Below, in pieces: positions 31,533-59,985 of a stretch of 64,000 nucleotides of DNA. The translations under genes were made by a program, and so were the position numbers. Position 1 is the stretch's first letter. Each line of letters begins with the position of its first letter. The notes under the pieces were generated by a model that saw nothing but the letters and a program-made list of their open reading frames with translations, did no database searches and was not told where the DNA came from. The stretch comes from Verrucomicrobiia bacterium (GTDB lineage Bacteria; Verrucomicrobiota; Verrucomicrobiia; Palsa-1439): positions 632-64,631 of the forward strand of contig JBBISF010000001.1 of assembly GCA_037441425.1 (NCBI GenBank). The letters are read 5' to 3'.

Positions 31533-31622
31533 TAGCCACTGATTCACACAGATGGGACACGGATCGGCGCTTCGCAGAAGCGCCGCTACACCGTCTGTGT
31601 TTATCTGTGTTCATCTGTGGCT
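31533..31622. repeat. palindromic element, 'cacagat' variant of the cacgaat family, with an inner hairpin
   Basis: tagccactgattcacacagat (31533..31553) pairs with atctgtgttcatctgtggct (31603..31622) at about 17/21 positions. An inner 7-bp hairpin ggcgctt-cgcag-aagcgcc lies at 31566..31584. Confidence 0.65.
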
Positions 31623-31634
31623 TCAATGCCGGCC

Positions 31635-31665
31635 ATTCGTGTTTATTCGTGTTCATTCGTGGCTA
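31635..31665. repeat. 'cacgaat' repeat arm (right or outer arm of the nuoF/nuoG junction)
   Basis: attcgtgtttattcgtgttcattcgtggcta. It encodes the last residues and the stop of nuoEF (..SSHE, TGA at 31653..31655). Confidence 0.75.
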
Positions 31666-33404
31666 CTGCCGTTGCCGTTCTTCTTGCAGGCCGCCTCGAA
31701 TTCGCTGCGGTAATTTTTTAGGAACGCTTTGACCGGCCACGCGGCGGCTTCGCCGAGGGGGCAGATCGTTTTGCCGTCGATATTGTCGGCGACTTCGAAG
31801 AGGAGATCGACGTCCTCCGGGCGGCCGTGGCCGTCTTTGATGCGGTGGAGCATTTTCTCCATCCAGAGCGTGCCTTCCCGGCACGGCGTGCATTGACCGC
31901 AACTTTCGTGGGCGTAAAATTGGGAGACGTTGAGCGTGGTGTCGACGATGTTGACATCTTCGGTGAGGACGACGATGCCGCCGCTACCGGCCATCGTGCC
32001 GGCTTTGCGGAGGCTTTCGAAATCGAGGGGGACGTCGAGATTATTCGCAGGCATTACCGGCATTGAACTCCCACCGGGAATGACGCCTTTGATTTTCTTG
32101 CCGTCTTTGACGCCGCCGCAAACGTCTTCGATGAGTTGGCGCATCGTGAGTTTGCCCATCTCGAATTCGTAGTAGCCGGGGCGTTTGACTGGACCGCTGA
32201 CGCAGACGAGTCGCGTGCCGGTCGAGCCGGGGACACCCATCGCTTTGAACCACGCCGCGCCGTTTTTGACGATGTGCGGGATGTTTGAAAGAGTCTCGAC
32301 GTTGTTGACGACGGTCGGGCAGCCGAACAAACCGACGATGGCCGGGAACGGCGGTTTGATGCGCGGGTAAGCGCGTTTGCCTTCGAGCGATTCGATGAGG
32401 CCGGTCTCTTCGCCGCAAATGTACGCGCCCGCGCCGCGGTGGACGTAGATCTCGGCGGTCTTGCCGACGTAACCTTTGGCGCGCGCTTCTTCTATGGCTC
32501 CCAGAAGAATCTGCGCGCCGACCGGCATCTCACCGCGAATATATATGTAGGCCACCTTCGCGCCGGTCGCGTAACAGGAGATGAGGATGCCTTCGATGAG
32601 CTGGTGCGGATCGTAATTGATCAGTTGCCGGTCCTTGAAAGTTCCCGGCTCAGACTCGTCGGCGTTGCAAACGAGGTACGTCGGCTTGCCGGTATTCTTC
32701 GCGAGGAAACTCCATTTGAGACCGCATGGAAAACCGGCGCCGCCGCGTCCGCGAATCTCGCTGTTTTTGACTTCGTTGACGATGTCCTCGGGCTTCATCG
32801 TCAGCGCTTTCGCCAACGCCTGATAGCCGCCTTCCTTCTCGTAATCGGTCAGCGAGCCCGTGTAGCCGGGTTTGGTGATGTTCGCGAGCAGGATGCGTTT
32901 TTCGAGCGGATGCGCCGGTAACGGCTTGGCGACCGGCTCTTTCGCGAGCGTGCCGGTGCGCTTGATGTCGGCGATGATCTGGTCGAGGCGTTCCGGCGTC
33001 ATCCTGTCGTAATGCTCGTCATTGATCATCATCGCCGGGCCGGTGCCGCACGAGGCGAGACATTCAACGGTCGAGACTTCGAAGTCCGGGCCGAGATTTT
33101 TCAGGCGTTCCAACAGTTTCGCGCTCCCGGCCAGTTGACAGGAGAGTGTCCGGCAAATCTTGATGTGAAACCTGGCGCGCGGCTTCTGCGTGAACATCGG
33201 GTAGAACGTGACCACTTCCCAGACATTGATCGGCTGGAGGCCGAGTTTGCCGGCAATCCATTCGACTTGTTCCGCGCCGAGACAGCCGCAGTGATCCTGA
33301 ATCAAATGACAGAGCCACAACACCGCCGCCCGTTTCGTCGGGTAATGCGTGATGATCTCGTCGATGTGACGTTCGAGGTCGGCAGGGATGATTAAGTTAG
33401 CCAC
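31653..33404 (-). CDS. nuoEF: fused NADH-quinone oxidoreductase subunits E and F
   Basis: The N-terminal about 150 aa is NuoE-like (YPTKRAAVLWLCHLIQ, ICRTLSCQLAG, CLASCGTGPAMMIND). The rest is NuoF (GRGGAGFPCGLKW, ESCGQCTPCREG). It is one 583-aa frame with a GTG start at 33404 inside the repeat. Confidence 0.9.
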   Translation of the reverse strand: MANLIIPADLERHIDEIITHYPTKRAAVLWLCHLIQDHCGCLGAEQVEWIAGKLGLQPINVWEVVTFYPMFTQKPRARFHIKICRTLSCQLAGSAKLLERLKNLGPDFEVSTVECLASCGTGPAMMINDEHYDRMTPERLDQIIADIKRTGTLAKEPVAKPLPAHPLEKRILLANITKPGYTGSLTDYEKEGGYQALAKALTMKPEDIVNEVKNSEIRGRGGAGFPCGLKWSFLAKNTGKPTYLVCNADESEPGTFKDRQLINYDPHQLIEGILISCYATGAKVAYIYIRGEMPVGAQILLGAIEEARAKGYVGKTAEIYVHRGAGAYICGEETGLIESLEGKRAYPRIKPPFPAIVGLFGCPTVVNNVETLSNIPHIVKNGAAWFKAMGVPGSTGTRLVCVSGPVKRPGYYEFEMGKLTMRQLIEDVCGGVKDGKKIKGVIPGGSSMPVMPANNLDVPLDFESLRKAGTMAGSGGIVVLTEDVNIVDTTLNVSQFYAHESCGQCTPCREGTLWMEKMLHRIKDGHGRPEDVDLLFEVADNIDGKTICPLGEAAAWPVKAFLKNYRSEFEAACKKNGNGSSHE

Positions 33405-33428
33405 GAATGCACACGAATGTTCACGAAT
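33398..33428. repeat. left 31-nt 'cacgaat' arm flanking the GxxExxY gene
   Basis: tagccacgaatgcacacgaatgttcacgaat matches the reverse complement of 33808..33838 at 28/31 positions. Confidence 0.85.
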
Positions 33429-33453: not shown

Positions 33454-33819
33454 TTTGAATTCGCACTTCGTCCTTCCGAAGTTGGTCAACACGCCGACCT
33501 TCAGCCCGGTTGCCTTCAAATAGTTTAGCAACTGCGCTTCGTGCTGTTTGTTGTATGTTTGCTCGGCTTTCAATTCTACGATCACTTTGTCATCAACTAT
33601 CAAATCGGCCACGTAGTCACCCACGATGGCTTCTTTGTACTTCACTTTCAGCGCGTGCTGCGCTTCCACTTTCACGCCGCGTTTGGCCAACTCGATCAAC
33701 AGTGCGTTCTCATACACCTTCTCTAAAAATCCGTATCCCAAAACATTGTGCACCTCGAACGCCGCTCCCACAATTTGACCGACCAAATCGCCATGAATCA
33801 GTTCCTTATTCGTGTCCAT
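33439..33819 (-). CDS. GxxExxY-family protein (PD-(D/E)xK nuclease fold)
   Basis: 126 aa. IVGAAFEVHNVLGYGFLEKVYENAL..EL (the GxxExxY motif), DLIVDDKVIVELKA (D..ExK core), AQLLNYLKATGLKVGVLTNFG. Confidence 0.88.
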   Translation of the reverse strand: MDTNKELIHGDLVGQIVGAAFEVHNVLGYGFLEKVYENALLIELAKRGVKVEAQHALKVKYKEAIVGDYVADLIVDDKVIVELKAEQTYNKQHEAQLLNYLKATGLKVGVLTNFGRTKCEFKRLVM

Positions 33820-33838
33820 TCGTGTGGATTCGTGGCTA
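33808..33838. repeat. right 31-nt 'cacgaat' arm flanking the GxxExxY gene
   Basis: attcgtgtccattcgtgtggattcgtggcta. It contains the GxxExxY ATG (33819) and the nuoD stop TAG (33836..33838). Confidence 0.85.
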
Positions 33839-48359: not shown

Positions 48360-48632
48360 TCAAGCTCTGCGTGCGTTGCGTCGCCGGGAAACCACCCTCA
48401 GTTCTTCCTTCCAGAACTCCTCGATGCGCCCGCGATACTCAACGCCGATCATTGGGTCGTCTGGAAATGTCTGACCGCATCCGCAGGCATAGTCGAGGAA
48501 TGTGACCACGCCGGCACGACCAAGCCACCGCTTGTTACCGGTTTCATCCGTAAGTCTAACCACGCGCACTGGCGTGCCGATCTTAAACGGCGCACCCGGA
48601 ACATCGCGGAGAATATGCTTCGCGCCTGTCAC
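48360..48632 (-). CDS. hypothetical small protein (90 aa)
   Basis: The ORF sits between two nuclease-like genes on the same strand. No recognisable family, possibly a small beta-rich domain. Confidence 0.3.
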   Translation of the reverse strand: MTGAKHILRDVPGAPFKIGTPVRVVRLTDETGNKRWLGRAGVVTFLDYACGCGQTFPDDPMIGVEYRGRIEEFWKEELRVVSRRRNARRA

Positions 48633-48653
48633 ATTATTCTGAAAGCAGCGGAG

Positions 48654-49388
48654 CTACGAACCCCACTGGCTGTCGATTGCGGCAACTTCACTTTCTTTGG
48701 CGTGCTTATCGGAGACCAACTCGTAGCTCGTGAATCGGGCTCTAGCGGCAATCGTGGCGAATGATGGGTGAGCAACTTTGGACGCAAACTCTTGTTTGCG
48801 GGCTGCCGGTGAGACAATCCTGAAGGTGACGTAAAACGCGTCGAGAAGCACAAACTTCAGAAAAGCGCTGTGCATGTCCGTCGTGTTTTCTACCTCGATG
48901 AACTCTGTCGGCATTTTCCGGTCGTTGAACCAGATGACATCAACCGTCGCCGCCCGGCGAACGATGTCGTCGTAGGTAAACGGATAGATGTCGTCGACCG
49001 TGATCATCTCGCCCAGCGGTTTCCCAAGAAACGATTTTCCACGATCTTGCTTTGGCACAAACGTTCGCTGCTTCTTAAGATTGCCAAGCTCCACAAGCAA
49101 ACCTTGGTAGTAGGTGTGATCGCTTTCGGGCTTCGGCTTCGACCTAATGTCCGCCGGCAGCTTATCTTTCGCTTCAAGCAGCGCCCATAAGCCCGGACGG
49201 ATCTTGAAAAAGAATCGCGGGTCTTGCACGATACGATTGATAGATTTGAACGGCGTCTTTGTCTTCCACTCGACGTCCGGGATTTTCAGCGCCTCCCGGT
49301 AAAGGTGTCCCAGCGTCGCGAAGCCGCCGTTAACACGCATCACCTCGATCACTGCGTCGTGTTGCTTCTTCTTCACGCTTACCAGCAT
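48654..49388 (-). CDS. winged-helix (Mrr_N/HARE-HTH-like) plus restriction-endonuclease-like domain protein
   Basis: 244 aa. The N-terminal wHTH pattern is [23 protein letters not shown]...[13 protein letters not shown]. The C-terminal pattern [13 protein letters not shown]...VDVIWFND...FIEVENTT resembles a D...EVE nuclease core. Confidence 0.45.
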
Positions 49389-49828
49389 CTTACTGGACGC
49401 TTGCCGGAAGCGCAGCCAAAAAACGGCACGGAATTGGCCGGGGTGTAGCGTTTGAAGTCCGAGTACACCGCGCCACCACCGAGGAACGGCTCGACGTACC
49501 GTTCGACTTCAGCCGGGAAGACTTCATCGAGCTTGGGCAGCAATGAGATTTTGCCGCCCGCCCATTTCAGAAACGGCTGCGCTTCGACGCGGGCGACTTC
49601 CGGGGCATCGGCAAATTCCATCGCTCGTTGTTCATCGTAGGCATAGAGAAGACCATCCGGCTCGCGGCTTGTCGCCCCGACAAGTTTGTCGGGGCTCCCA
49701 CGAGACGGAGGAAGTTTGGCGAGTTTACGGGCGAGTTTGGATTTTGGTTTCGGATCGGATCTCTGATCCACCCGTACTTTGTACGCGGTTTTGCTCTCCC
49801 TGACGACGGGCCGCGATTTTTTCGCCAC
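49379..49828 (-). pseudogene. truncated Dam-like DNA adenine methyltransferase (N-terminal fragment only)
   Basis: [17 protein letters not shown]...[12 protein letters not shown] is the Dam N-terminus and AdoMet motif I. The ORF ends about 25 aa later with no DPPY motif anywhere downstream. GTG start, basic 85-aa N-terminal extension. Confidence 0.55.
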
Positions 49829-49917: not shown

Positions 49918-50032
49918 GACTGGGGCGGCGCGGTTTGATGTGAGCCGGTAGCTCAGTTGGTCGAGCAACGGCTCCGCCTTCGCCACGCTTCGGCGCGGCG
50001 GGGCTTTTGAGCCGGTGAGGTAGCGCGTAGAA

Positions 50033-50308
50033 TTACCGGCGTGTGCGTTTTCGACGGTGACGTGGCCGCTCGCTGATAAAGATGTCGGGCCACCCGCAGT
50101 TGAACAATTTCTTCAGGTAGCAGAGGTGATCGAGGCGGAAGCGCTTGAGGTGTCCCTGCTCCCAGCGGCGTAACTGTTCCGGATGAAAGCCGGTGACCTC
50201 GGCAAATTGCCGGAAGGACAGTTCACCCCGTTGCCGGCGTAGGAATTTGGTCACGTCCCGACGGACTCGCTCCACAGCTTTGTCAGCGCCTGTCATGGCG
50301 GAGGACAC
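50033..50308 (-). CDS. XRE-family helix-turn-helix protein
   Basis: LSFRQFAEVTGFHPEQLRRWEQG is an HTH_3-type motif. 91 aa with a basic C-terminus. Confidence 0.65.
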   Translation of the reverse strand: MSSAMTGADKAVERVRRDVTKFLRRQRGELSFRQFAEVTGFHPEQLRRWEQGHLKRFRLDHLCYLKKLFNCGWPDIFISERPRHRRKRTRR

Positions 50309-50489: not shown

Positions 50490-51338
50490 CTAGCCGCCCA
50501 CGACCACGGCGACTGCGGCGCTCCATTGGCCGACGCGTTGGTCGCCGACCCGATAGATCGCCCGGTATTGCCATTTGACCGGGGTGGCCGGGATGGGTTC
50601 GGTGTCGTTGTAACCGGGCGTGGTGTCGAACGCCAGCAACTGCCAGCCGGCGCCGCCCCCGCGGTCCACTTGAATCTCGATGATGTCGAGGAACGCTTGT
50701 TTACCTTGCCAGCCCCAGCCGACGGTGATGCCCGCCGGCGCGCGGGTGATTTTCAGCACGGGGCCGAACGTGGCGAAGTCGGGGGCGCTCTTCTCGCTGC
50801 CGATGACGCCGAGGTCGCTGCCGATGGCTTCGGTGTACCCGGCGGCGTTCTTGATGGTCTGCACCAGATCAAAAATCCGGGTCAACGCGCCGGTGTTGGT
50901 GGGCACGCCGCCCGCCGGCGGGGTGAACGTGGGCAGGCTCATCAGCGCGGCGCCATCGCCGGTCTGCGCCTCAGTGGCGGCGTCGGTGCCGGCTTCGGCA
51001 AACGCGCGGATGGCCGGCAACCAGGTGCCGAGCACGTAGCTCACCCAGTCGCAATCCGCTTCCGCGGCGGTCACCACGCCGGCGGCCAGGCCCAAGGGCG
51101 TCGCGTAGCCGGGCAGTTTGTTTTTGAAGTTCCCGAGCCAGGTGACTTGGTCACCGACTTTGAGCGGGAAGTACGTATTGTGTCGCATTCCTTTTCTCCT
51201 TTTGGGTTTGGGTTGGTTGATGGGGGCCGGGGGCGGCACGTAACCGGGGTCGCCGGCCTCCAGTTGATAGCTGGGGTTGCCCCAATAACTGTTCGGGTCG
51301 TCGAAAGTGAACCCGGAATCGAACTTGATGACCTTCAT
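50490..51338 (-). CDS. hypothetical protein with a C-terminal fibronectin-type-III-like beta domain
   Basis: The most plausible start is ATG 51338 (MKVIKFDSGFTFDDPNSYWGNP). The C-terminus ITVGWGWQG...EIQVDRGGGAGWQLLAFDTTPGYNDTEP..VKWQYRAIYRVGDQRVGQWS looks Fn3-like. Confidence 0.55.
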   Translation of the reverse strand: MKVIKFDSGFTFDDPNSYWGNPSYQLEAGDPGYVPPPAPINQPKPKRRKGMRHNTYFPLKVGDQVTWLGNFKNKLPGYATPLGLAAGVVTAAEADCDWVSYVLGTWLPAIRAFAEAGTDAATEAQTGDGAALMSLPTFTPPAGGVPTNTGALTRIFDLVQTIKNAAGYTEAIGSDLGVIGSEKSAPDFATFGPVLKITRAPAGITVGWGWQGKQAFLDIIEIQVDRGGGAGWQLLAFDTTPGYNDTEPIPATPVKWQYRAIYRVGDQRVGQWSAAVAVVVGG

Positions 51339-51356
51339 AGGGGTATTTCTGCGTAA

Positions 51357-51650
51357 GTGGCTGATTTGGAACGATAAGTGACGCAGCACTTGCGGTAAGT
51401 GTTGCATCACCAACGAAAGGTGGCGGGCCATCCGCCGAAAGTGACGCGGCACCAGCCAAAGGTGTTGCGCCACCCATCAGAGGTGGTGCGTCCCCTGCCA
51501 AAAGGGATGCGCCACTTGCCGCGCGGGGTGCGCCACCTGTGAGAAGTGTTGCGTCACCAGCCGATGGTGTTGCGCGACCTGCGCCGGGTGGCGCAGCACC
51601 CGCCGCAAGTTGGTCGCCACCTGCCGGAAGTGGCGCACCACCTGCCGCAG
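51357..51650. repeat. tandem array of 14 x 21 bp (consensus GTGnyGCGnCACCnGCCGnar), no indels
   Basis: Units were aligned by hand from 51357 to 51650 with exact 21-nt phasing. Columns 1-3, 6-7 and 10-13 are conserved. The core GTGnnGC/GnnCAC is semi-palindromic. Confidence 0.9.
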
Positions 51651-51668
51651 AAAGTTGACCTCGTGCCT

Positions 51669-51914
51669 TCATGCCCGCGGTTTCCGGTCGTCCCCGTTGG
51701 CGCGGTGGGGGAAGCTGGGCGCGATCTCGTGGATGTCGCAGTTGTACGCGGCGCACAGCAGCCACATGGTTTGCAGCGTGGGCATGTTCCGGGCGTTCAA
51801 CAGGCGGTGAATTGTCTTCTCGGGAAGATCGGCTTCATCGGCCAACTCGCGGGCTTTTCGCCCATTCAATTTTTGCCGGAGAAATCCGGCGACTTCACTC
51901 CGCACTCGAACCAT
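51669..51914 (-). CDS. XRE-family helix-turn-helix protein
   Basis: RKARELADEADLPEKTIHRLLNARNMPTLQTMWLLCAAY is an HTH_3-type motif. 81 aa. Its stop lies 19 nt from the tandem array. Confidence 0.65.
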   Translation of the reverse strand: MVRVRSEVAGFLRQKLNGRKARELADEADLPEKTIHRLLNARNMPTLQTMWLLCAAYNCDIHEIAPSFPHRANGDDRKPRA

Positions 51915-59129: not shown

Positions 59130-59223
59130 GGTTACGTCATAAAATTCACGATTACAAGCACAGCGGATTGTGCGATAAATACATTGCCATTGTCAAAAGC
59201 GCAATGGAGAAAGGGACAAGCAA

Positions 59224-59985
59224 ATGAAAGAAACAACCGTTACGAAAGGGACAACTGCAATGAAACAACCACGATTCGCCATCATGGTGGCCGGATTGGC
59301 GGCCATCGCCATGCTGTTCACCGCTGTGTCGGACGCGTCCGCCGCAGTCATCTACCAGGACAACTTCACCGGCTCGGGCAGCGCTCCGCTGAACGGAACG
59401 ACGCCCACCGTTACAACGGGCGCAGCCACATGGTGGGCTGAATCTGGGTGGACCGCTGATGGGGCCGTATCTGGTGGTGGGCAGGCGTATCTACCGCTCA
59501 CACCGATAGAAAAGGGCACCTATACGTTATCTGCAGACCTGACTGTGACATCGAGTGGGATTGACTGGATTGCTCTTGGCTTCGACAATAACACCGGTGG
59601 TGGCTACTTCATTGGTGGCGGCGCGGCTTGGATGCTGAATGACGGAAACGGCAATGTCACTGCGTTTACCAATGGCGTGTCTGCTTCGTTCCCGTTGGGA
59701 AATTACGGCACGAATGTCCCCGTATCGGCCAAAATTGTACTCAACACCATGCAGCCGCAATGGACTGCCGCGTGGTACGTGAATGGCACGCAAATGAAAA
59801 CGGTCACATTTAACACCAATCCCACAATCGACAGGGTGGAACTCTACGGTTTCTCTCCGGTAACCGGTAGCGTCGCTAACTTCCAACTGGACTTCGTGGG
59901 GGTTCCTGAACCGTCCACAGGGCTGCTGCTTCTCGTGGGTGGCGGGCTGTTGGCGTGGTGGAAACGGGCCGGTGGCCGGCGGTAA
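59224..59985 (+). CDS. PEP-CTERM sorting-domain protein
   Basis: Signal peptide and the C-terminal VPEPSTGLLLLVGGGLLAWWKRAGGRR anchor motif. A GGAGAAAGGGA RBS lies upstream of 59224. Confidence 0.85.
   Translation: MKETTVTKGTTAMKQPRFAIMVAGLAAIAMLFTAVSDASAAVIYQDNFTGSGSAPLNGTTPTVTTGAATWWAESGWTADGAVSGGGQAYLPLTPIEKGTYTLSADLTVTSSGIDWIALGFDNNTGGGYFIGGGAAWMLNDGNGNVTAFTNGVSASFPLGNYGTNVPVSAKIVLNTMQPQWTAAWYVNGTQMKTVTFNTNPTIDRVELYGFSPVTGSVANFQLDFVGVPEPSTGLLLLVGGGLLAWWKRAGGRR

Follow-up and report, generated by a model that had tools for sequence, protein, structure and literature searches.

Tandem arrays of binding sites are a familiar feature of plasmids, phages and a few operators. The iterons of pPS10, R6K, P1 and RK2 are direct repeats of 17–22 bp that are bound by Rep, are spaced by about 21–22 bp and lie upstream of rep. 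The partition arrays, i.e., sopC of F with its 12 repeats of 43 bp, each containing an inverted repeat, and parC of R1 and pSK41, consist of dyads that are bound by a dimeric DNA-binding protein into a higher-order complex, and they often double as operators. In the met-boxes of MetJ, the heptads of the omega repressor and the hexamer arrays of Fur, units of 6–8 bp are present in 2–10 copies, and neighbouring dimers of a known and conserved repressor contact each other. Repetitive extragenic palindromic sequences with their bacterial interspersed mosaic elements (REP/BIME) and mycobacterial interspersed repetitive units with variable numbers of tandem repeats (MIRU-VNTR) may affect mRNA stability or coupling. 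Here, we describe an array of 21-nt units in a 64,000-nt stretch of contig JBBISF010000001.1 from Verrucomicrobiia bacterium, referred to as the window and numbered from its first letter. The array lies between a small gene of the XRE family and a gene for a 282-aa protein that ends in an FN3 domain, here called the FN3 gene. The array and the FN3 gene are a unit of inheritance, a self-contained module found across Verrucomicrobiota, and the array is probably a non-coding control element acting in cis on this gene.

The link between array and gene is evident from related loci. A scan of genomes for relatives gave 80 loci (named L0xx, about 800 kb), 65 of which have enough upstream sequence, and an array was scored as a lag-21 repeat in the 450 nt upstream of the gene. 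A period-21 array, or one with a period of 42, 63 or 84, is found just upstream of the gene in 56 of the 65 homologous Verrucomicrobiota loci. Lags 20 and 22 score in none of the loci, and 2/320 control segments score. All other lag-21 arrays in the approximately 800 kb likewise precede a member of the family. The four closest metagenome relatives, with 64–68% protein identity, carry arrays of 11–17 units each, and arrays also precede the short, 230-aa form of the gene as well as distant relatives, whose gene calls contain translated arrays. Tandem Repeats Finder (TRF) reports periods of 21, 42, 63 or 84 only across the loci, apart from a few higher-order units of 62 nt and one unit of 20 nt.

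The surroundings of the module are not shared. With tblastn, none of the window's neighbour genes has a homologue in the 80 related loci, all-against-all clustering of the open reading frames (ORFs) in these loci yields no conserved neighbour gene, and the contexts are ordinary, unrelated chromosomal and housekeeping genes on contigs of up to 3.4 Mb. Since the arrays track the gene family while no neighbour is conserved, the unit of inheritance is the array together with the gene. Comparison of related loci places the start of the module homology 20–180 nt upstream of the array. Judged from these sequence comparisons, the array belongs with the downstream FN3 gene and not with the XRE genes. 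What is conserved is a lattice with a fixed period and position and not a sequence; it is specific to one gene family and often strand-symmetric. An assembly artefact, a concern raised in the preliminary description of this locus, does not account for the arrays as a class, because about 60 independent assemblies carry them, contigs of 0.4–3.4 Mb included. In addition, the 16-unit array of one relative is identical in three independent metagenome assemblies of one population.

In the window, the array occupies 51357..51650 on the minus strand and consists of 14 head-to-tail units with exact 21-nt spacing and zero indels, as seen both from self-comparison and from the TRF period of 21. The preliminary description had proposed this phasing. 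On the gene strand the unit reads CTGCGGCAG-GTGGTGCGCCAC. Self-identity at lag 21 is 0.60, compared with 0.22–0.36 at neighbouring lags in the range 15–27, and the best other 273-nt stretch of the 64-kb window reaches 0.41 at this lag (mean 0.29, standard deviation 0.033). Units 2–14 are well defined and agree with the consensus GTGGTGCGCCACCTGCCGAAA at 13–18 of 21 positions, while unit 1 (51357-51377, minus strand) is degenerate and agrees at 7/21. A 15th, degenerate unit continues the 21-nt phase at 51336..51356 (minus strand), and, read on the gene strand, its final triplet is the ATG of the FN3 gene (51338-51336). The columns earlier listed as variable (4, 5, 9, 14, 18, 19 and 21) do vary, and so do columns 8 and 17. 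A search for the repeat consensus, also proposed at that time, finds the motif GTGNNGCGNCAC inside the array only, among all 64 kb of the window, and the related loci carry the period-21 arrays described above.

The local order on the minus strand is the XRE gene (51914..51669), the array, the FN3 gene (51338..50490) and a small ORF (50308..50033), with a GC content of 0.61–0.64 around the array. A spacer of 18 nt separates the array from the stop codon of the XRE gene (51669-71), and another 18 nt separate its other end from the ATG of the FN3 gene; the 19 nt given for both distances in the preliminary description agree with these values.

The period of the array equals seven codons, and in the window the FN3 gene is in one reading frame with the array and with the XRE gene. 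The array could thus be read as encoding heptads, which would extend the FN3 protein at its N-terminus or belong to a separate upstream ORF, and gene callers do at times merge it into the gene (P0067, P0111, P0118, P0234 and P0071). However, of 63 loci 37 keep the ATG frame free of stops across the array, compared with 50 and 49 for the other two frames, i.e., stops are commoner in the very frame that would be translated. A 3-nt periodicity of variation is seen in 0/44 arrays, if anything, third codon positions of the ATG frame vary the least, and some arrays contain 1-nt indels. The translated heptads are mutually unrelated between loci, most gene calls of the family begin at a common MK/MR start that gives about 280 aa, and in L088/L089 the triplets TGA-TAA-TGA stand in frame just 5' of the start codon. 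Coding heptads are therefore rejected on the stops in the ATG frame and before the L088/L089 start codon, the lack of codon periodicity and the 1-nt indels; a translated repeat is highly improbable, and the window array and the related arrays are non-coding, as had been proposed. The TGA in frame with the FN3 gene that was part of the original argument is present, but it lies in unit 6 (51477..51479, minus strand) and not in unit 5. Independent of this question, the arrays open long frames on both strands and give rise to spurious heptad-repeat N-termini or small ORFs in gene calls, for example window 51151-51765 (minus strand), P0067, P0071, P0111, P0118, P0232, P0234 and L083:865-1071.

The product of the gene linked to the array (50490..51338, minus strand) begins with a conserved segment, continues through a Lys/Arg-rich linker into a novel helical domain and ends in an FN3 beta-sandwich. 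In the AlphaFold2 (AF2) model, which is confident with a predicted local distance difference test (pLDDT) of 81.5, the conserved N-terminus is extended, the linker is disordered and the helical domain holds a 40-residue helix. In Foldseek searches, hits are confined to the FN3 domain, those to such domains in phage tail proteins among them, and the helical domain, when modelled alone (predicted template modelling score, pTM, 0.74), retrieves no PDB neighbour at E < 1. The protein has no hit in Pfam, NCBIfam, PHROGs, PADLOC or the PDB sequences. It has 336 word-indexed homologues, and a profile search collects 2,297 clusters at 50% identity, none of them named. According to titled genome records and a few named protein hits, almost all members are from Verrucomicrobiota, with a few bins otherwise labelled, and the family thus appears to be large and restricted to this phylum. 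The possibility that the downstream protein is a Rep, Par or helix-turn-helix (HTH) protein was rejected, as no family was hit and FN3 was the only fold matched.

Many family members begin at the invariant Met52 of the window protein, giving the short form of 230 aa. In DNA, the Lys/Arg-rich linker just ahead of Met52 would be rich in purines, and a second, internal start site may therefore exist in the long-form genes. A partner ORF starting with MPFDP... lies downstream of the FN3 gene in about 11 loci of the window's wider clade, but not in the window itself (e.g., L081:8964-9239, L083:2089-2832, L086, L087 and L089), and in L083 it is followed by a 1,302-aa protein with weak Ig-like hits. 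As only about 11 loci have one, this ORF was rejected as a conserved downstream partner.

How does the module compare with the described systems? It shares with iterons the contiguous direct repeats of about 21 bp immediately upstream of a gene for about 280 aa, the lineage-specific units and the location of these on one face of the helix, and the 14 units of exactly 21 nt fall within the iteron range of size and spacing. However, no adjacent Rep initiator is detected with Pfam, NCBIfam, PHROGs, AF2 or Foldseek, and the downstream protein lacks the winged-helix fold. There is no AT-rich unwinding region at a GC content of 0.61–0.64, the loci are chromosomal, and no homologue of the gene family is found in 50,697 phage records, 72,556 plasmid records or IMG/VR, so a phage or plasmid origin of the module was rejected. 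Unlike iterons, the units are often palindromic, reach 18 copies and have a sequence that does not covary with the protein. The spacer-free head-to-tail repeats, each with a dyad, resemble sopC and parC. Here, however, the period is 21 bp, the phylum-wide tie is to a non-par gene family, and there are no ParA, ParB, ParR or ParM genes; neither a ParA-type NTPase gene nor a gene for a centromere-binding protein is adjacent in the 80 loci, where the neighbours are unrelated housekeeping genes. The family, fold, neighbour and phage/plasmid searches therefore uphold the earlier remark that no Rep or Par gene is evident.

The contiguous symmetric units are also reminiscent of the MetJ, omega and Fur sites, but at 21 bp they are longer and with up to 18 copies more numerous. 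Like REP/BIME and MIRU-VNTR elements, the array is GC-rich, partly palindromic, located between co-oriented genes and subject to whole-unit changes in copy number. These elements, however, are scattered over many genomic loci, REPs in association with RAYT transposases, while the array is found only before one gene family: its motif is confined to it within the 64-kb window, and arrays in the approximately 800 kb occur only upstream of the family. A CRISPR array can be set aside, as the units are contiguous, without unique spacers, and no cas genes are present among the neighbours. ARAGORN calls no tRNA in the window that would suggest a tRNA-linked island. Full-text literature searches found no description of such an element.

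The symmetry of the units is more extensive than first described. In the window, dyad 1, for example GTGGCGCACCAC at 51630..51641, has the half-sites GTG and CAC with a central GC. The second dyad, CTGC(S)GCAG, for example CTGCCGCAG at 51642..51650, is centred 10.5 nt from the first, and the whole unit is reverse-palindromic. The dyad symmetry of the core noted in the preliminary description is thus real, but its 12-nt extent is too narrow, as the supposed spacer is itself the second dyad. The window array is 57% identical to its own reverse complement at in-phase offsets, compared with 60–63% to its own shifted copies and with 0.447 ± 0.037 for reverse-complement identity in a column-permuted control. 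The inverted repeat I1 of the window has 28-nt arms that are 79% complementary. Among 63 arrays, 28 have consensus dyad arms of at least 5 nt, versus 10.7 in shuffles (maximum 23). Reverse-complement symmetry of the whole circular 21-mer reaches at least 8/10 pairs in 14/63 arrays (1.9 expected) and at least 9/10 pairs in 8/63 (0.1 expected), and it is perfect in L016 and L052. The dyad symmetry and the period of two helical turns, both proposed earlier, are therefore real and fit a binding lattice on duplex DNA.

Between related arrays, symmetric double changes can be read from the sequences at positions 2:11, 3:10 and 4:9, for example GGGATGCATCCC vs GGGGTGCGCCCC, GTGG..CCAC vs GGGG..CCCC, and GGCG..CGCC. 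When both members of a mirrored pair of positions deviate within an array, the two are complementary (Watson-Crick) in 45/86 cases versus one third expected, although the cases are not fully independent due to higher-order repeats. The conserved columns of the window array are mirror-symmetric (GTG..GC..CAC), while the variable pairs 4/9 and 5/8 do not covary, which leaves a stem of 3 bp; this column pattern fits recognition of half-sites and not a hairpin. Between duplex DNA and RNA as possible levels of action, the two-helical-turn period, the strand symmetry and the mirror-symmetric conservation tip the balance towards duplex DNA.

Unit sequences are nearly wholly different from locus to locus. 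At protein identities of at least 75%, the similarity of the consensuses is 0.72–0.77, and in close pairs the arrays diverge at about the rate of third codon positions. Paralogues within one genome differ in their arrays: L004 and L056 are 94% identical over 456 nt upstream and 85.5% in the gene, but their arrays are unalignable, and between L055 and L057 the homology starts exactly at the ATG. The arrays of L088 and L089 are about 95% identical save for one exact gap of 84 nt, i.e., four units, and in other close pairs the lengths are about one or two units apart. For the window array no exact-match contigs were found that would allow a comparison of copy number between strains. A genome-specific host factor was rejected, as arrays of paralogues in the same genome are no more alike than protein identity predicts. 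The unit type CAC-yTGCsGCAr-GTG..GC is shared by the window, L021, L027 and L034-36 at only 50–55% protein identity, i.e., the units are under some sequence constraint. Likewise, a GCyyACC core, read by eye from printed units, is common to the window, L083 and L087-89. In the protein comparison, no residues of the FN3 protein that could confer specificity were seen to track the array type.

A second type of repeat occurs in the module, an 8-nt microsatellite (GCGCAACC)n or (GCGCAACA)n, i.e., (GCGCAACM)n, with 3 to >12 copies. It sits 60–270 nt upstream of the 21-nt arrays in L003, L006, L011, L012, L034, L035 and L036. At least three copies of the motif are present in 8/70 loci versus 0/310 control windows. 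Other loci have repeats of 7, 8 or 14 nt, such as (GGGCAACC)n in L015, a 14-mer repeated about five times in L020:1-74 and (GGCATTC)n in L069:4954-5159. The window lacks all of these repeats.

In the preliminary description the array was read as an operator for the two adjacent XRE-family proteins, which would polymerise along it. The upstream gene (51669..51914, minus strand) encodes an 81-aa XRE protein with an HTH_3 domain, has the same orientation as the FN3 gene and ends 18 nt from the array. XRE-like ORFs are found upstream in the same orientation in five further loci (L001, L007, L086, L088 and L089), and, judged from coordinates, in L088/L089 the ORF runs up to the array. The 21-bp palindromic unit is of the size that is usual for the operator of a dimeric HTH protein, and a dyad of about 14–21 bp, as in XRE/Cro-CI operators, is indeed present (the GTGnnGCnnCAC core plus the second dyad, and the symmetry of the whole unit). 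However, an HTH gene that is conserved and covaries with its operator is not observed. Even with the threshold relaxed to E ≤ 0.5, Pfam detects HTH_3 in only 2 of the 78 ORFs that lie upstream on the same strand in the related genome loci. The six loci with an XRE-like ORF all belong to a sub-clade with 56–68% identity to the window protein, where they make up 6 of about 14 loci by count, and their ORFs form three groups without demonstrable mutual homology. Such an ORF is seen upstream neither in the sub-clade members L083, L087, L003, L004, L056 and L048 nor at most of the other array-bearing loci.

The comparison of L088 and L089 runs opposite to the prediction. Their XRE-like ORFs, the presumed recognition helix included, share about 50% DNA identity, while the upstream flanking gene is about 90% and the array about 95% identical. 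A repressor specific for this array ought to keep in step with an operator that has not changed. The XRE gene is not what maintains the array. On the tblastn searches, the ORF clustering, the Pfam scans and this comparison, XRE was rejected as the general partner, and an operator for the adjacent XRE proteins is quite unlikely as an explanation of the array. The second supposed XRE gene, the small ORF downstream of the FN3 gene (50033..50308, minus strand), has only sub-threshold HTH hits and no counterpart in the related loci, and it is regarded as context only. The adjacent XRE protein may use the array within this sub-clade but cannot be the general partner; the XRE gene adjoins the module in the sub-clade only and does not belong to its conserved parts. 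It may be an addition particular to this sub-clade, where the array may lie inside an XRE-FN3 operon. As a separate observation, the divergence between L088:1694-2023 and L089:334-729, about 50% DNA identity with flanks of 90–97%, suggests that the HTH gene was replaced as a cassette or is under strong diversifying selection.

We suggest, with a probability of roughly 0.4, that the array is a cis-regulatory, phased lattice on duplex DNA that controls the FN3 gene, with a protein as the candidate binder. Contiguous and largely two-fold-symmetric sites of 21 bp would form the lattice, and every site would be on the same face of the helix because 21 bp correspond to two helical turns. A protein, probably a dimer, would then bind cooperatively along that face, and the bound lattice would overlap or abut the promoter or leader of the FN3 gene and thereby set its transcription. 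Several observations weigh against this proposal. No candidate binder is conserved alongside the arrays in the related loci, AF2 and Foldseek reveal no recognisable nucleic-acid-binding fold in the 282-aa protein, and the array type does not track the sequence of this protein. Below about 55% protein identity, the similarity of the consensuses is at the random baseline (0.47). Paralogues within one genome have different arrays, which would argue against a single sequence-specific host factor, and L026, L055, L083 and L087-89 show little symmetry despite long, homogeneous arrays. Scores for sigma-70-like promoters equal the background upstream of, inside and downstream of the arrays. The sigma-54-like promoter TGGCACG-N4-TTGCW is found at ≥9/12 in 0/66 upstream regions versus 7% of control windows, and this lack of a -24/-12 promoter also sets the array apart from a sigma-54 enhancer array (upstream activating sequences, UAS). 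Finally, the array occupies the entire gap between two co-oriented genes in the window and L088/L089, and in several loci good units extend to 20–40 nt from the start codon. Because of this, the array is probably transcribed, which favours a role at the level of RNA.

Such an RNA element would be transcribed as a 5' leader or, between the small HTH gene and the FN3 gene, as the spacer of two cistrons. Hairpins or long inter-unit duplexes, formed by the GC-rich dyads, would control mRNA stability, read-through or downstream translation, by analogy with the REP/BIME or MIRU elements found between cistrons. Many loci have arrays that abut the start codon, the filled intergenic gap is seen in L083 too, and no promoter is detectable between array and gene; it could sit in the 20–180 nt upstream of the array, where the module homology starts. 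On the gene strand, the window, L001, L006, L056 and L057 have a TGCG centre in common, around which the arms covary between loci, and one clade has units of a GC dyad followed by T5 (L038, L043-45 and L050). The predicted folding of the window array surpasses that of shuffled sequences for either strand, with z = -4.3 for sense and -6.3 for antisense. However, the predicted fold, which is no worse for the antisense strand, is built on long-range pairs between units and not on local unit hairpins, and among the mismatches in the arms neither strand shows a bias towards wobble pairs (GT 174, AC 185, other 433, Watson-Crick 1282), i.e., the excess of G-U on the gene strand is absent; unit RNA hairpins were rejected on these two grounds. 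Pairing at the unit level holds in only 62% of arm cells, with "other" mismatches dominating, and the 3-bp stem left in the window by positions 4/9 and 5/8 points the same way. Hairpins do not need the second dyad and the whole-unit symmetry, the exact 21-nt period has no RNA reason, and Rfam 15 gives no match except a chance one to mir-587 (E = 0.6, 20 bits versus a gathering score of 80). A role in RNA is the most serious of the competing explanations, but a doubtful one. Somewhat less probable still is a copy-number-variable repeat, a contingency or VNTR locus, in which any function lies in the frequent gain and loss of whole units, expression is tuned by distance in steps of two helical turns, the unit sequence is nearly neutral and homogenised by concerted evolution, and the palindromy is a by-product of intra-array recombination. 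The exact four-unit difference between the near-identical L088 and L089, the length differences of other close pairs, the divergence at about the third-codon-position rate down to the random baseline, and higher-order periods of 42, 63 and 84 nt, typical of unequal exchange, all agree with this, as do the upstream 8-nt microsatellite and the 7-, 8- or 14-nt repeats at other loci. However, a neutral repeat should have disappeared from most lineages over divergence down to 40% protein identity, while 56/65 loci keep one. The symmetry far exceeds that of shuffles, some unit types survive at 50–55% protein identity, and length is constant in the three independent samples of one population.

It can also be speculated, at low probability, that array and gene are a new, self-contained control module widespread in Verrucomicrobiota, in either of two versions that share this low probability. 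In one version, the gene's own product would read the strand-symmetric lattice through its novel helical domain or its basic linker. If true, this would be a new nucleic-acid-binding fold, whose fast-drifting specificity keeps paralogues orthogonal. In the other version, the lattice and the 8-nt microsatellite would together be a hypermutable switch for a possibly surface-exposed FN3 protein, the expression of which would be varied in steps of two helical turns.

A few other features of the window were noted. On the minus strand, 48360-49828 looks like a decayed restriction-modification system or a genomic island: a 244-aa ORF (48654-49388) has a weak hit to a type II restriction enzyme, the overlapping ORF 49379-49828 contains only the first approximately 40 residues of a D12/Dam methyltransferase domain, and 48360-48632 encodes a CarS-type SH3 protein. 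At 49936-49990, GCCGGTAGCTCAGTTGGTCGAGC resembles the 5' half of a tRNA, although ARAGORN calls none, and it may be the remnant of an att site. Tandem repeats of 10 nt, CATTCGTGTT and its near reverse complement CACGAATGCA, are located at 31594-31661, 33402-33428 and 33808-33834. They flank the ORF 31653-33404 on both sides and could be terminal repeats of a mobile element or sites for a regulator. An 18-nt tandem repeat, GAAAGGGACAACGCAAT, with about 3.2 copies at 59209-59265, overlaps the start of the ORF 59224-59985.

The array described here is distinct from the known tandem arrays in that it is chromosomal, keeps an exact 21-bp period over deep divergence while its sequence drifts, and is tied to one protein family. 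For annotation it matters that gene callers at times translate such arrays. As selection in this repeat may maintain period and symmetry rather than sequence, it provides a natural test case for this mode of evolution. The module also offers a handle on the control of gene expression in Verrucomicrobia, whose promoters and regulators are poorly known, and on the role of an abundant FN3 protein, whose family comprises about 2,300 clusters at 50% identity.

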